NCBI RefSeq assembly: GCF_041248615.1
Contig: NZ_CP158426.1
DNA from: Escherichia coli
GTDB taxonomy: Bacteria > Pseudomonadota > Gammaproteobacteria > Enterobacterales > Enterobacteriaceae
DNA length: 64,000 nt
Strand: one strand, 5' to 3'
Below, piece by piece: positions 7,232 through 58,054 of this stretch. The notes beneath the pieces were generated by a model. It had not been told where the DNA came from. It saw only the letters and a list, made by a program, of their open reading frames with translations, and made no database searches. Position numbers and translations under genes: made by a program. Each line of letters begins with the position of its first letter. The first letter of the stretch is position 1.

Positions 7232-7777
7232 TTAGGCTTTTTCAACCTGGCTGAAGTCCAGCTCTACCGGGGTCGCACGACCGAAGATAGAAACAGACAC
7301 TTTCAGACGAGATTTCTCGTAATCCACTTCTTCAACAACACCGTTGAAGTCAGCGAACGGACCATCATTAACACGGACCATTTCACCCGGTTCAAACAGC
7401 GTTTTCGGACGCGGCTTATCACCAACCTGCTGCAGGCGGTTCATAATCGCATCGACTTCTTTATCGCTGATTGGTGCAGGACGATCGGAAGTACCGCCGA
7501 TGAAGCCCATCACACGCGGTACGCTGCGCACCAGGTGCCAGCTCGCGTCGTTCATCACCATCTGAACGAGGACGTAGCCAGGGAAGAATTTACGTTCGCT
7601 TTTGCGACGCTGACCGCCACGGATTTCAACCACTTCTTCGGTTGGTACCATGACTTCACCAAACAAATCTTCCATGTTGTGTAATTTGATATGCTCACGC
7701 AGCGACGTTGCTACGCGGCCTTCAAAACCGGAAAACGCCTGAACGACGTACCAGCGCTTTTTAGGAGCTTCAGACAT
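7232..7777 (-). CDS. nusG: transcription termination/antitermination factor NusG
   Basis: 181-aa product [73 protein letters not shown]... Confidence 0.98.
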
Positions 7778-42490: not shown

Positions 42491-42798
42491 AAGCTGCTCC
42501 CGGGCTTGCAAAAGCCCATGTCCATATTTTTGATGGAGGAAACAATAGGCAATCGCAGGCGGAGCAAACAGTGGATAAAAAGGCCATTTACTGGACTTTT
42601 GTAATATCAGTACAAAAATGCGATCCGCCTCATAACTTGCGGCAACCCGGAAGCATGCCGCAAAACGGCGTCTTGTGAGACGCGTCGCAAATTGACGGTT
42701 ACATTACATTTGTCCAGCTTTTGGCAGATTTGTCACATGGCAGGCCGTTGCCGTGCGCTCTTATCCTGTAAACAGAAAACCGTACCGGGAGAGAGGCA

Positions 42799-51295: not shown

Positions 51296-51569
51296 TTATA
51301 ATTGAATTAATCCACGGATGCGATAGTTGAGATCTTACATATTGTTGGTTAAAGAGATGTAGATCAAATTGATCGTAATTAAGCTTTTTTGATTATGTCC
51401 GAATTCGGACAAATGCTTTATAAAAAAGGGTTTTAGCTTTATATCCTTCAAGTAATGAGGGAGAAAACAAGGCTGACACCCTTATTTTCCCGCCCTCATT
51501 TCGAGGCAGCATTTTGTGCTCTGTTTAAAATTTGTGATCACTGTGTGATTTTCACAAAAGCCACACTAT

Positions 51570-52463
<894 letters not shown>

Positions 52464-52841: not shown

Positions 52842-54395
52842 TTACTTGATATCTTTCACGCGCATACCGTTGATCTGTTCATCCGTGATGGTGTTACCCG
52901 CTTTGAAGTAATCAACCACGGCGTGATAAACGTAATAACCGCCCGTTGTGTTACGCGCTTTCCCTTCGGTAAAGGCGGTAAAACCATCTCCACCATCAGC
53001 AAGGAAACTCTGAGTAGCAATGTGGTAAATCGTCGCATCTTCAATGGGTTTGCCATTCAGAGTCAGCGTGATTACCCGCTGACCAACCGGCTTACTGCTG
53101 TCGTACTTCATTTCCAGGCCTTTCGATACCTGTAAAACGCCATTACTTAAACTTGCGCCGTGTTCCATCAAACTGCGTAATTGTTTACCCGTGAGATCCA
53201 TCGTCACCAGTTCGTTGGGAAACGGGAAGGTACTGATGACGCCGCCCATCGTAATCGCCCCTGCGGGGATCTCATTGCGAATGCCGCCAGAGTTGGTTAA
53301 CGCCAATTGGGTGTTTTTACCCGCCGCTACCAGTAAAGCATCAGCCGCCAGGTTCCCGAGGGAAGCCGATTCACCATAGGCACGTTTTAATTCAACCGGC
53401 GATTTCGCGACCGTTTGTTGCACCACTTCATCAAGCTTTTTATTCCAGCCGTCGATCACCTGTTTTGTTTGCGGATCGGGCTTCCACTCGTCGGCGTAAA
53501 TGGTTTTAAGCTCGAAGTTTTTCACCGTAAAATCATGCGGCTTCTCTTTGTAGTCGAGAACCAGTTTGCCCACATCAATCCCGCCGCTGTCAGTGGAGAG
53601 GATGAGCGTATTGCCGACTTTAATCGGTTCCGGCGTACCCACATGCGCATGTCCGGTGATCAAAATATCCAGCCCTTTCACCTGACTTGCCGTCTGAATA
53701 TCTTTATCCAGCGCGCGACGCACATCTGTGCCTCCCATACTGGACTGGCGGGCCGGAACACCTTCATGGATCAGGGCGACGGTCAAATCAACCTTGCCTT
53801 TAAGTTCATCGATATAACGTTGTAGCCATTTAATTTCATCACGCGCTTCAATCCCCACTCGCGTTGCCGCAGATACCGTGTCATTAAAGGCAAATACACC
53901 GTGCAAACCTATAACGCCTATTTTCACTCCGTCTTTTTCGATGATGGTATATGGCTTATCCCAGAATGATTTACTGCTGTTCTGATAAAAAACATTGCCC
54001 TGCACAATAGGGAATTTTGCCTGACTCAACTGTAATAATGTGTTGTCCCAGCCGTGGTCAAATTCATGGTTGCCTATCGTGACGGCATCAAACGGCATAG
54101 TATTCATAATATCGATAATAGCCTTACCTTTGGTCAGGCTGCTGATATATGGCCCGGTAAAATAATCACCCGCATCAAAAAACCATGTCGCTTTATTTTT
54201 TGCTTTTTCTTGCTTAACCAGCGTAGTGATATTTGCCCAGCCGCCAATATCCCGTTTACCATCAGCGATCCACGGCACTTTATAAGGCTCGACATGCGCA
54301 TGGAGGTCGTTGGTATAAATGATGGTGACATCTTTGGCGCAAGCCCAAAACGGCAGTGTTAATGCGATACCCGCAGCAAGTATTTTAATTTTCAT
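52842..54395 (-). CDS. secreted bifunctional metallophosphoesterase / 5'-nucleotidase-family protein (UshA/CpdB-like), accessory relative to K-12
   Basis: 517-aa product with signal peptide [20 protein letters not shown], calcineurin-like phosphoesterase motifs DLHAH, GDYFTG, GNHEFD, GHAH, and 5'-nucleotidase C-terminal-domain signature ([12 protein letters not shown]...[16 protein letters not shown]); good SD AAGGGA 8 nt upstream of ATG. Confidence 0.85.
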
Positions 54396-54454
54396 AAACA
54401 GTCCCTTTCAGTGAGATAAAGGATTGCTACATTACGTTCTGAAAGAGTTATTTA

Positions 54455-54470
54455 TGTGAGAGTAATCACA
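54455..54470. promoter_or_regulatory. consensus CRP-binding site in divergent promoter region
   Basis: Perfect TGTGA-N6-TCACA (TGTGAgagtaaTCACA), centred about 67 bp upstream of the nucleotidase ATG and about 65 bp upstream of the zinc-ribbon gene ATG. Confidence 0.6.
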
Positions 54471-54527
54471 TCCACAGGGGAGCGTTGCCGGACAAAATCA
54501 ACGACCATGTGAAATCGTTGGTGATAT

Positions 54528-55658
54528 ATGTCGACTCTGTTTACGATTAATGCCTGCAAGTCGTTTGGTTGCCGTAATTTAGGGCAGCCAACATCTAAAG
54601 ATTATAGCTGGCCCGACTATCGGCTGGGTTATCCGGCATTGCACTGTCGGGCATGTGGCAGTTACCCGCCGTTGTTTGACGAGCAACAATTTCGTGACTG
54701 GTTGTCAGTTCACTTATCTACTTTTGCAACAGAGAAAGGCCATTTTTGCCCGGTATGTTATGGCACAAAGACGATTTGTTATGGCCACAATCCACAGGGG
54801 TCGCAACGCATTCAATGTCGTAACTGCAAAAAAGTCTGGACACCTAAACAATATCAGAAAGAAATAACGCCTCCTGAAATAATCGAAACGGTTGCTCTTC
54901 TGGTGCCATTTCAGGGAGCCAGCAATGGGCAGAAACTGTATGTTTTAATCAGTTTTGATGCTCTTCGCGGTAATATTCTTCATCTTTCTACTAATTACAC
55001 GCAGCATCAGGCTGGAGAAAGTCTGCATTATCGATACAGAGGGAATGCAGAACCAGAGTTACACGAGAGTAATATTGTACAACGCGTTGATATGCGCGAA
55101 GCACAATTTCTACGCCGCAGTCAGTTTGATGAAATTCAGTATGGCAGCGCAGCGCTCAAACGCAATGCTAAAGGTGTTATTCTGCGTCCGGTTATCACTG
55201 CACACGGGCATTTCAGAGTACTGAATATTTTATTCCCTACAGTAAAAACACATGTAATTTCACACGAGTGTTTTTTAAGAGGTGCGATTATTACGGCCTG
55301 GGCAGAACTGTTTCGCCAACAGCAAGGTGAGATTTGGTTTATTGAAGAGGAAATAGCTGACTATACCGATAATACGCCCTGGCGTTTTCAGGGAAAAACT
55401 TATCACGGCTGGTGGAAAAATCAGTGGCAACTCTGGGTTCAGGGCAAAAATCGTAAAATGGTATGTGCATTAACGGGCGGAAATATCAGCAAAGCTGAAA
55501 TGCTCTCTTTAGCAACCAGCAGACATTTTATCGACTGGCTACATAAACAAGCAGTATTTACTCACAGCGCCCCGCTTTCCGCAGGGCGCGTTACGCAAAT
55601 ACTGCTTTCTCTGGCTCAGGATTACAACAACTGCGCCAGGCGGTTAATATCCGACTGA
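54528..55658 (+). CDS. hypothetical tandem zinc-ribbon protein; second ribbon resembles the IS1 InsA zinc finger
   Basis: 376-aa ORF; CxxxxC...CxxC (CKSFGCRNLG...CRACG) then CPVCYGTKTICYGHNPQGSQRIQCRNCKKVW, which aligns with IS1 InsA [32 protein letters not shown]; C-terminal about 270 aa Trp-rich with no motif I recognise; last 12 codons are antisense to the metL 3' end. Confidence 0.6.
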   Translation: MSTLFTINACKSFGCRNLGQPTSKDYSWPDYRLGYPALHCRACGSYPPLFDEQQFRDWLSVHLSTFATEKGHFCPVCYGTKTICYGHNPQGSQRIQCRNCKKVWTPKQYQKEITPPEIIETVALLVPFQGASNGQKLYVLISFDALRGNILHLSTNYTQHQAGESLHYRYRGNAEPELHESNIVQRVDMREAQFLRRSQFDEIQYGSAALKRNAKGVILRPVITAHGHFRVLNILFPTVKTHVISHECFLRGAIITAWAELFRQQQGEIWFIEEEIADYTDNTPWRFQGKTYHGWWKNQWQLWVQGKNRKMVCALTGGNISKAEMLSLATSRHFIDWLHKQAVFTHSAPLSAGRVTQILLSLAQDYNNCARRLISD

Positions 55659-58054
55659 ATCGCCCCTGCGGTGACGTCGCGCCCCGCGCCAGGCCCACGG
55701 ATCACCAGAGGGTTATCGCGATACCAGCGGCTTTCGATGGCAAAGACGTTATCGCACGGCAGCAGTGATGCCAGCGGATGGTCTTCACGCACCGCTTCCA
55801 CGCCCACACGCGCTTTGCCATTGGCATCGAAACGCGCCACGTAGCGCAGCACCAGCCCCATTTCGCGGGCCGCTTCCAGCCGTTGCACCATCTGCTCGTT
55901 AAGTTCATCGCCGTTTTCAAAGAAATGGTCGATGCTACCACCTTCGCAATGGGCAGGCACCAGCGATTCCACGCGCACCTGATCTGGTTCGATGTCGTAA
56001 CCCGCTTCACGCGCCAGAATCACCAGCTTGCGCATCACGTCTTTGCCGGAAAGGTCATCACGCGGATCAGGCTCGGTTAAGCCCTGCTGCCACGCCTGAT
56101 CCACCAGCTCGGTAAACGGCACGCTACCGTCGAATTGCAGGAACAGCCAGGAGAGCGTGCCGGAGAAGATCCCACTGATCGACAAAATAGTATCGCCGCT
56201 GTCGATCAGATCGCGCACGGTATGGTTGATCGGCAAGCCCGCACCGACGGTGGCGTTGTACAGCCAGTGACGCCCGGTTTTTTCGAAGGCGTCGTGGATC
56301 TGGCGATATTTATTGCTGTCGCTGGCTCCCGCCAGTTTGTTGGCGCTGATGACGTGGAAACCGTGGCTGGCAAAATCGAGATACTGATCAGCAAGCTGCT
56401 GGCTGGCGGTAACGTCCAACACCACTAAATCATCATACGGATGGGCGCGCATCCACAGGAACAGCGACTCTTCATCCTGCTCGACCGCTTCATCGTTGAA
56501 GAAGGCTAACGCGCGGCTGGCGTCCAGCCCGTCATAACTCAACAGGCTACGGCGGCTGTCCACCACGCCTGCCAGCACAAATTCAAAGCCGGTACGCGCC
56601 GAGAGCGTGCTCTGCTCACGGGCGAACAGTTCCAGCCAGCGGGAACCGATATTGCCCTTGCCGAACAATACCAGGCCGATGCGTTTTTCTGCGCGGAAGA
56701 CGGACTGATGCAGCCCCTGAATCAGGCTTTCGGTCGGTCCGGTGCGCAGTACTGCCACCAGGCTGATGCCGTCATCCGACTGCCAGGTAAATTCGACCGG
56801 CTGGCCTTTCAGTTGCTGCCAGAAGCGGTGGCAATGCAGCGGGTTACGGGTTACGCCCGCCCCAACCATCGCCACCAGCGCCAGCCCCTGACGCAGGCGC
56901 AGTTCGCCAGGTAATCCCGCTTCGTCGAGGATTTTCAGCGCACTGTCGGCCACTTCTGAGGTGTAGCAAAATTGCAGCAACTGGCGATCGTTATGTACGC
57001 CAACCGCCAGTGGGCGCACCTGAGCACGTTTCAGGATCTGGTCGATCTCTTTATGCGCCAGTTTGAAATCCTGGCTGGTGGGCACCTGAAACTCAATCAA
57101 GCAGACATCATCGTGGCTGGTGACAATACGCGCACCAGTACCGGAGGCCAGCACGCGTTCAATGCGCGTGGAACCTTGATCCGGCGTGTAGCTACAGCGC
57201 AGCTGCAGGTCAATTTCGCTGCCAGAAACCGGCTGTAAAGTACGGGCGTGAAGAACGGGAGCCGCCAGACGCGCCAGTTCGCTGGCCTCATCCAGACGCA
57301 GCAACGGCAGCAGGCAGGCATCTTTCACTTTACGCGGGTCGGCACTGTATACCCCGGCGACGTCGCTCCAGATGGTGACGCGAGAAACACCCGCCAGCGC
57401 ACCGATTTGTGTCGCGGAATAGTCGGAACCGTTACGCCCCAGCAGCACCGTTTCACCGGCGTTGTTACGGCTGATAAACCCGGTCACCACCAGACGTTTG
57501 CCCGGATGTTGCACCAGTAGCTGTTGCAGCAACGGGTAAGAAAGCCCTTCATCAACCTGCGGTTGCGCAGCGCGTTCAGCGCGTAAAAACTCGCGGGCAT
57601 CAAGCCAGGCCGCTGGCAGCCCTTGTTGATTAAGCACCGCAGACATCAGGCGCGCCGACCACACTTCACCGTGACCCACCACTTCCGCATACACCGCATC
57701 GTTAATACCGCTGTCGAGCAGCGCCGCCAGGCGCTCAAGATCGCTGACAAAAGCGCTAATGAGGCTATCGGCTTCTTCGGCGGGTAGCAGGCCGCTAATC
57801 AGATCGCACTGATAGCGACGCAGCGTTTGTTGAACCTGATGCGCAGAGAGACGATCGGTCTGACTTAGTTTCAACCAGTTAATCAACTGGTTAGTGGTGC
57901 TACCGGCGGCGGAAACCACCATCATATCGTCAGGCTGAGAGTACTCCGCCATAATGCCCGCGACACGCAAATAACACTTCACATCAGCCAGACTACTGCC
58001 ACCAAATTTATGCAGTTGACGACCTTTCGCCCCTGCCTGCGCAATCACACTCAT
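55622..58054 (-). CDS. metL: bifunctional aspartokinase II / homoserine dehydrogenase II
   Basis: 810-aa product MSVIAQAGAKGRQLHKFGGSSLADVKCYLRVAGIMAEYSQPDDMMVVSAAGSTTNQLINWLKLSQTDRLSAHQ... ending ...AIQSDINRLAQLL; immediately downstream of metB. Confidence 0.96.
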   Translation of the reverse strand: MSVIAQAGAKGRQLHKFGGSSLADVKCYLRVAGIMAEYSQPDDMMVVSAAGSTTNQLINWLKLSQTDRLSAHQVQQTLRRYQCDLISGLLPAEEADSLISAFVSDLERLAALLDSGINDAVYAEVVGHGEVWSARLMSAVLNQQGLPAAWLDAREFLRAERAAQPQVDEGLSYPLLQQLLVQHPGKRLVVTGFISRNNAGETVLLGRNGSDYSATQIGALAGVSRVTIWSDVAGVYSADPRKVKDACLLPLLRLDEASELARLAAPVLHARTLQPVSGSEIDLQLRCSYTPDQGSTRIERVLASGTGARIVTSHDDVCLIEFQVPTSQDFKLAHKEIDQILKRAQVRPLAVGVHNDRQLLQFCYTSEVADSALKILDEAGLPGELRLRQGLALVAMVGAGVTRNPLHCHRFWQQLKGQPVEFTWQSDDGISLVAVLRTGPTESLIQGLHQSVFRAEKRIGLVLFGKGNIGSRWLELFAREQSTLSARTGFEFVLAGVVDSRRSLLSYDGLDASRALAFFNDEAVEQDEESLFLWMRAHPYDDLVVLDVTASQQLADQYLDFASHGFHVISANKLAGASDSNKYRQIHDAFEKTGRHWLYNATVGAGLPINHTVRDLIDSGDTILSISGIFSGTLSWLFLQFDGSVPFTELVDQAWQQGLTEPDPRDDLSGKDVMRKLVILAREAGYDIEPDQVRVESLVPAHCEGGSIDHFFENGDELNEQMVQRLEAAREMGLVLRYVARFDANGKARVGVEAVREDHPLASLLPCDNVFAIESRWYRDNPLVIRGPGAGRDVTAGAIQSDINRLAQLL

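Follow-up and report, generated by a model that had tools for sequence, protein, structure and literature searches.

The window analysed here, a stretch of 64,000 nucleotides, covers the Escherichia coli chromosome around metB-metL / metF-katG. Two genes lie between metL and metF, both of which are missing from K-12 and O157; one encodes a 5'-nucleotidase (NT1) and the other a protein of 376 aa (HYP). The region between their divergent start codons (54396-54527) is noncoding; its length of 132 bp agrees with the initial annotation. The features that concern us are, from left to right:

51570-52460, minus strand: metF
52842-54395, minus strand: ORF of NT1, a 517-aa secreted 5'-nucleotidase/metallophosphatase; the putative leftward target gene
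54426-54445: conserved block GCTACnTTACGTTCTGAAAG, overlapping the spacer and the -10-like hexamer of the putative leftward promoter; candidate operator
54429-54434, minus strand: putative -10-like hexamer TAATGT of the nucleotidase promoter, 31 bp from the CRP centre
54455-54470: putative CRP core site TGTGAGAGTAATCACA with exact consensus half-sites, centred at 54462.5; the 22-bp site spans 54452-54473
54493-54498, plus strand: putative -10-like hexamer CAAAAT of the promoter of the 376-aa gene, 33 bp from the CRP centre
54499-54520: inverted repeat CAACGA-N10-TCGTTG, unique in the window (expected 0.01)
54512-54522, plus strand: invariant block AAATCGTTGGT, shortly ahead of the HYP start codon and predicted to be +8 to +18 of the HYP mRNA; candidate operator or translation signal
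54528-55658, plus strand: ORF of HYP, a 376-aa 'cytoplasmic/hypothetical protein' with two probable zinc ribbons and an RNase H-like core; the putative rightward target gene
55622-58054, minus strand: metL

NT1 carries the Pfam domains Metallophos and 5_nucleotid_C behind a signal-peptide-like N-terminus, and is annotated in RefSeq as a bifunctional metallophosphatase/5'-nucleotidase. Across genera its identity is 87-99%, and its orientation to the 376-aa gene is always divergent. Of 5,426 complete E. coli genomes, 1,840 (about a third) carry the NT1-HYP pair, Nissle 1917 and ExPEC lineages among them, and so do many other Enterobacterales. A literature search for regulation, CRP binding or expression of this locus returned only a genome paper (PMC12928451), which names the island 'GR 31 metL..metF', gives it hypothetical nucleotide-processing functions and does not mention regulation. 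In a long form of the island, two further nucleotidases and a Tsx-type nucleoside channel follow beyond HYP. These genes, together with the domains and the N-terminus of NT1, support the scavenging context that the initial annotation had proposed for the nucleotidase.

The island of the window is a short form that lacks both extra nucleotidases as well as the tsx-like gene, and its similarity to the long form (L002, L004, L005) ends near 55465, within the 376-aa ORF. That ORF and the convergent metL share 37 bp at their 3' ends. Two diverged nucleotidase-HYP modules each are found in E. coli SCPM-O-B-8794, Escherichia sp. MOD1-EC7003 and Citrobacter sp. wls619 (locus pairs L012/L019, L013/L038 and L030/L039), the HYP copies of these genomes being about 71-75% versus about 90% identical to that of the window. 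In the second module lineage it is the nucleotidase, not HYP, that is followed by the extra nucleotidases and tsx. The only partial match to the intergenic region was in E. coli IH5 (L006; NZ_CP168949.1, 5047204-5059302), amid a series of truncated, unrelated pseudogenes; heavy scrambling of this stretch, or an artefact of its assembly, seems to be behind it.

CRP recognizes a 16-bp core of two-fold symmetry in which G4 and C13 are the key positions, and E. coli and the other Enterobacterales in which the pair was found are known to carry crp and adenylate cyclase; neither crp nor cyaA lies in the 64-kb window. The palindrome TGTGA-N6-TCACA was confirmed at 54455-54470, with ten of ten core positions matching the consensus, and so was its central placement, 67.5 bp from the ATG of the nucleotidase (A at 54395, minus strand) and 65.5 bp from that of the 376-aa ORF (54528). 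No other perfect TGTGA-N6-TCACA occurs within the window. Dinucleotide-preserving shuffles put the chance expectation at 0.08 per window, with at least one match in 8 of 100 shuffles, and the chance of a perfect palindrome in these particular 132 bp is about 1.6e-4. For a scan of the whole window the palindrome alone is only mildly unlikely, which makes it suggestive, not conclusive; since a chance p of about 0.08 leaves the question open, it is conservation that decides it.

The strength of the match was judged with a symmetrised position weight matrix (PWM) made from 126 distinct RegulonDB CRP 16-mers (Table S4 of Shimada et al. 2011; PMC3105977). On this matrix, whose maximum is 15.8 bits, the palindrome reaches 12.1, the highest value among all 64,000 positions (runner-up 9.8), and only six of the 126 RegulonDB sites, whose median is 7.0 bits, score as high. 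Four of the 126 are perfect, so that 'uncommon', the word used in the initial annotation for a perfect palindrome, is fair. The next best non-overlapping 16-mers of the regulatory region reach 4.2 and 4.0 bits. One candidate for a second CRP site, TGTGAAATCGTTGGTG at 54508, lies 53 bp rightward, a deoP2-like spacing; it was rejected on its score (4.0 bits) and on the loss of its TGTGA in other genera.

Other CRP-like matches were noted in the window. The intergenic region 42512-42798, which divides a divergent 366-aa gene (minus strand) from an 833-aa PTS-like gene (plus strand), holds TGCGATCCGCCTCATA (8.5 bits) and TGTGAGACGCGTCGCA (9.6 bits, one core mismatch) within 42619-42690, and the katG-metF intergenic region (51353-51560), upstream of katG, holds the moderate PWM matches AGAGATGTAGATCAAA (9.4 bits), TGTGCTCTGTTTAAAA (9.8 bits) and TGTGATTTTCACAAAA (8.7 bits).

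Both half-sites are kept in all of six diverged island variants from E. coli, with the spacers GAGTAA, GAATAC or GAGCAA between them. A scan of the genome collection with the HYP alignment gave 37 loci, and in 33 of these NT1 and HYP are divergent, with a TGTGA-N6-TCACA-type site at -73/-74 from the HYP start. Twenty-three non-redundant orthologous intergenic regions from about 12 genera were aligned (Escherichia, Citrobacter, Klebsiella, Enterobacter, Kluyvera, Phytobacter, Kosakonia, Pluralibacter, Silvania, Rahnella and Superficieibacter-type). TCACA is invariant in 23/23 regions and TGTGA has a mean identity of 0.91, the left half-site reading TGCGA, TGTGC, CGTGC or TGGGG in some genera. 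Mean pairwise identity is 0.92 over the ten half-site positions, 0.49 in the 6-bp spacer and 0.44 in the 22 bp to the right (54471-54492), and the columns 54422-54522 are gap-free in all 23 sequences. As the alignment has it, this footprint is of the shape expected for a CRP dimer site, not that of general sequence conservation.

The association extends well beyond close orthologues. HYP homologues of only 25-33% identity were found at six loci, and all six adjoin genes for nucleoside or nucleotide scavenging:

Motilimonas (L045): divergent deoD-talA-deoB; downstream, a YfeN/Tsx-like gene and adenosine deaminase
P0138 (L047): a NupC-type transporter and a nucleoside phosphorylase as neighbours
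P0150 (L050): a 5'-nucleotidase as neighbour
P0142 (L052): a DeoB-type mutase, a phosphorylase and a NupG-type permease as neighbours
P0160 (L053): Tsx and a nucleotidase as neighbours
P0165 (L054): a nucleotidase directly upstream, in the same operon

When these six loci were scored for CRP sites together with L051 (40% identity) and L043 (37%), seven of the eight regulatory regions were found to hold one site of 9.9-13.0 bits, at a background of 0.15 per kb. The palindrome is perfect in two of the loci, TGTGATCATACTCACA in L052 and TGTGACTCGCATCACA in L054. Judging from these regions, CRP control looks like an old, general property of the HYP/nucleotidase gene module. That the palindrome of the window is a functionless chance occurrence, as a perfect match somewhere in eight of 100 shuffled windows would allow, is hardly to be believed: its conservation is position-specific across about 12 genera with drift on both sides, and the site recurs in the distant loci, by which the idea is effectively refuted.

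The long island of E. coli CM2 (L005) has a further CRP-like sequence, TGTTACCAAGATCACA, at 7393-7408, which scores 11.6 bits and precedes the second nucleotidase gene by about 100 bp. In the same locus, 'AAACGACCAT', directly past the HYP stop codon, resembles CAACGACCAT of the window.

HYP itself belongs to a small family, with 119 representatives among 1.8 billion proteins. Its N-terminus has two probable Cys4 ribbons, the eight cysteines of which are conserved in 51-57 of 57 homologues, and is followed by an RNase H-like core of the transposase/integrase type. Among the acidic residues, position E247 is E or D in 57/57 homologues, D144 is D or E in 44/57 and D201 is kept in 50/57; a strict D-D-E triad is not evident. 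The NCBIfam model IS1_IS1595_Zn gives 21.3 bits, below its cut-off of 28, and searches of Pfam, PADLOC and PHROGs yielded nothing past a weak zinc-ribbon signal; sequence-profile matches to the PDB were to C2H2 zinc fingers and were set aside as spurious. Its AFDB relatives come from Enterobacterales and Vibrionales and bear the labels 'cytoplasmic protein', 'IS1 family transposase' or 'InsA N-terminal domain'. In 1,841 E. coli genomes the gene was found at one place each, it is syntenic with the nucleotidase across genera, and no element ends are detectable at it. The role of HYP may be that of a regulator derived from a transposase, or else of an enzyme in nucleoside/nucleotide scavenging.

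Another DNA-binding protein could be the chief reader of the palindrome, its likeness to a CRP site being incidental, and HYP is one candidate for this, given that its transposase ancestors would have bound TG...CA-type element ends, that its zinc ribbons are InsA/IS1595-like and its core integrase-like, and that the palindrome constantly accompanies its gene. We regard this as very improbable. The letters that are conserved are the ten that CRP reads, while the 6-bp spacer is free, and the variants seen (TGCGA, TATGA, TCACG) are ones tolerated in known CRP sites. A private operator would be expected to drift with its protein, yet the CRP consensus is kept beside homologues that are only 25% identical, and in an enterobacterium cAMP-CRP should occupy a consensus-grade site regardless.

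A consensus scan found no canonical sigma-70 promoter in the intergenic region, which is expected if its promoters depend on an activator. To the left of the site, the TAATGT hexamer reads TAAAGT, TAACGT, TAACTT, TAAGGT, TAAAAT or TAATTT in orthologues (TAAnnT), so that -12T, -11A and -7T are invariant and -9 and -8 are free (n=23). The leftward transcript is predicted to start near 54422, and this would place CRP at about -40.5. To the right, CAAAAT has a mean column identity of 0.97 with -11A and -7T invariant; here the predicted start is 54504-54505, with CRP at about -41.5 to -42.5. Both hexamers are weak, with three to four of six matches to TATAAT, and the unconserved 22 bp between the CRP site and CAAAAT hold no -35 (one to two of six matches). 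What the analysis shows directly is the site with its score and conservation, the constant spacing and the genes present, and the most economical reading is that one CRP dimer would serve two divergent class II-type promoters, the starts of which would lie about 83 bp apart.

Two other promoter candidates on the leftward side were rejected. The only promoter-like match of the scan, on the minus strand (54411..54382), extends into the nucleotidase coding sequence. CTTTAT/TTTATC near 54417-54422 would put CRP off-phase at about -52.5, and its hexamer is unconserved in E. coli.

The geometry bears directly on whether the site drives both genes or only one, which would then most likely be the 376-aa gene, with the nucleotidase under a promoter of its own or controlled via the 376-aa protein. 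The rightward spacing between CRP site and hexamer is repeated in homologues of 33-40% identity (L051, 40% identical, with CAATAT; L047, 33%, with TACTAT), and the extra conserved block on the left could be the target of another regulator. Counting further against double use, RNA polymerases at two class II promoters would compete for overlapping DNA, and on general knowledge such steric competition is expected where the two share a single dimer. Control of one gene only nevertheless seems unlikely to us, because the leftward TAAnnT retains its three critical positions at an indel-free distance of 31 bp in all 23 regions, and because the nucleotidase-HYP operon of L054 has a perfect CRP site in front of it, which puts the nucleotidase of that locus under the site.

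Beyond the CRP site and the hexamers, the intergenic region contains other strongly conserved sequence. The block GCTACnTTACGTTCTGAAAG has a mean identity of 0.92, with 11 of its 20 columns invariant across genera, and no known motif was recognised in it. In AAATCGTTGGT, which includes a weak Shine-Dalgarno-like GGTG, all 11 columns are invariant (n=23), and akin forms, 'CGAC...ATC.GTTGG', are present beside the 37-40%-identical homologues L043 and L051. Conservation of both blocks exceeds what the hexamers need, so something besides promoter hexamers acts here. A heptamer inside the left block, CTGAAAG (54439-54445), has its reverse complement, CTTTCAG, over the ribosome-binding site of the nucleotidase (54405-54411). 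Searching 54000-55000 against Rfam at a permissive E-value brought up no known RNA element, and a Pho box considered for CAGTCATATAAAGA was dropped, its second repeat being mismatched.

The weaker inverted repeat described in the initial annotation does exist, with the arms and the 10-bp spacing given there, although its position of 54492-54513 has to be corrected to 54499-54520, about 7 bp rightward. Its right arm is invariant and its left arm variable, 13 cells of the alignment changing to G.U and five to unpaired bases. With G.U allowed, 96% of cells pair on the plus strand, a figure that follows from the invariance of the right arm; compensatory, two-sided changes are absent across the alignment. 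An RNA hairpin on the plus strand finds no support in covariation, and its 5' arm would fall ahead of the predicted start. An intrinsic terminator on the minus strand (54520..54499) was rejected, since an A-to-G change in eight orthologues would break the pairing and there is no gene to terminate. From the alignment, then, the repeat appears as neither a demonstrated hairpin nor a demonstrated symmetric operator.

The gene content of the island invites comparison with the CytR regulon, and CRP might act here mainly within a repression or anti-activation complex together with a second, nucleoside- or nucleotide-responsive protein, as CytR does. Nucleotidases and a Tsx-type channel fit the physiology of that regulon, and conserved blocks stand beside both predicted core promoters. 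The CytR motif is defined as TGCAA/TTGCA or the octamer GTTGCATT (PMC3454398). In Phytobacter and Kosakonia (L023, L034, L021), TGCAA-N3-TTGCA occurs with zero to one mismatch directly right of the CRP site (aligned to 54475-54488 of the window), which suggests a lineage-specific co-regulation by CytR. The E. coli region, in contrast, contains neither TGCAA/TTGCA nor the octamer with up to one mismatch (best octamer six of eight), and it offers no second CRP site above 4.2 bits, whereas a CytR cassette usually comprises two (PMC3454398). We consider CytR-like logic improbable as the main mode of control at this locus, and direct activation by CRP remains the preferred reading.

There is probably a second, specific input through the conserved blocks all the same, entering at 54426-54445 and 54493-54522, and it could be speculated that it comes from the 376-aa protein. 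More boldly, HYP could found an undescribed, transposase-derived family, reaching across Enterobacterales, Vibrionales and relatives, and be the regulator or obligatory partner of CRP-controlled scavenging, binding 54426-54445 and 54499-54522 while a single CRP dimer fires two class II promoters. This proposal is tentative, and we would sooner bet against it than on it. If it is true, the locus would be a natural, near-symmetric counterpart of a layout studied so far mainly in synthetic constructs.

Taken as a whole, the consensus-grade match, the footprint, the spacing and the recurrence lend support to the earlier suggestion of strong cAMP-CRP control over one or both genes. That the single site is a working activator of both divergent genes, through class II-type promoters, is what we think likely, and we hold it with good confidence. 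In the model proposed here, cAMP would rise when glucose is absent and one CRP dimer would occupy 54455-54470, from where it would recruit RNA polymerase to two promoters, both activator-dependent and pointing away from each other. The leftward one, with its -10-like TAATGT and a start near 54422, would give the secreted 5'-nucleotidase, and the rightward one, with CAAAAT and a start at 54504-54505, the 376-aa zinc-ribbon protein. The site would overlap the -35 position in both directions (about -41.5, plus or minus 1), the arrangement of class II, with no usable -35 of the promoters' own. In this way the island would be coupled to carbon-limitation signalling, as are other nucleoside-scavenging genes. 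Binding of CRP, the two start sites, activation over repression and action to both sides are predictions drawn from sequence; since the site has been retained across about a dozen genera, it most likely turns both genes on when good carbon runs out.

Set against the catalogued E. coli CRP sites, the island site falls in the top 5% of the 126 RegulonDB scores, and the locus is missing from the K-12-based catalogues because K-12 does not have it. The lac CRP site, TGTGAGTTAGCTCACT, has the same 16-bp architecture and, like the island site, a G after TGTGA; many orthologues of the island site are more lac-like still, reading TGTGAG....CTCACA with a C before TCACA. The two differ in that the lac site has a mismatch in one half-site and acts from a class I position (-61.5), whereas both half-sites of the island are perfect and CRP would act there from a class II position (about -41.5). 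RegulonDB class II sites lie at -40.5 to -42.5, for example at galP1, melR, caiT, ykgR and sbmC (PMC3105977). The putative island promoters would likewise show overlap with the -35 position, together with a weak -10 and no -35 hexamer, at distances of 40.5 and 42.5 bp with the starts being predicted ones, and they differ in that one dimer would serve two of them in opposite directions.

Sharing of a CRP site between divergent genes is itself documented. Eleven natural pairs on a single CRP site have been listed, including araBAD-araC, glpEGR-glpD, gcd-hpt and xylAB-xylFGHR (PMC3105977), and according to the same source a model study by El-Robh and Busby (2002) showed activation in both directions from a single bound CRP. 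The island resembles these pairs in having one site, a short divergent region and two genes that are both plausibly controlled. The listed pairs are unequal in their distances (e.g., -93.5/-72.5 and -58.5/-63.5; PMC3105977), while the island is near-symmetric at about -41 on each side, and a -41/-41 layout is absent from the distances quoted there for the 11 pairs. With a near-symmetric single site of this kind, it could be studied in a natural setting how two RNA polymerases are served by one CRP dimer.

The CRP site, probably of class II, is a well-supported new member of a very well known class and not a new mechanism. What is mildly unusual about it is the perfect palindrome, its symmetric use by two promoters and the company of genes in which it is found. 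An ordinary mode of control would be placed on a little-studied accessory gene pair; the CRP regulon would gain a pair from the accessory genome, and the 'metL..metF' island gets a testable regulatory logic.

With the CytR/CRP regulon (tsx, deo, udp, cdd, nupC, nupG) the island shares a nucleoside physiology and, by prediction, CRP dependence. That regulon relies on tandem CRP sites and a CytR operator, neither of which is present in the E. coli sequence of the island, and the candidate specific regulator of the island is a different, uncharacterised protein. HYP, for its part, has the probable N-terminal Cys4 zinc ribbon(s) and the RNase H-like core of IS1 InsA and IS1595-type transposases, and differs from these in being single-copy and syntenic, in having no detectable element ends, and in an acidic triad that does not appear strict. 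A family of this type tied to CRP-controlled nucleoside scavenging is the more novel lead of the two, and the real discovery might be there.
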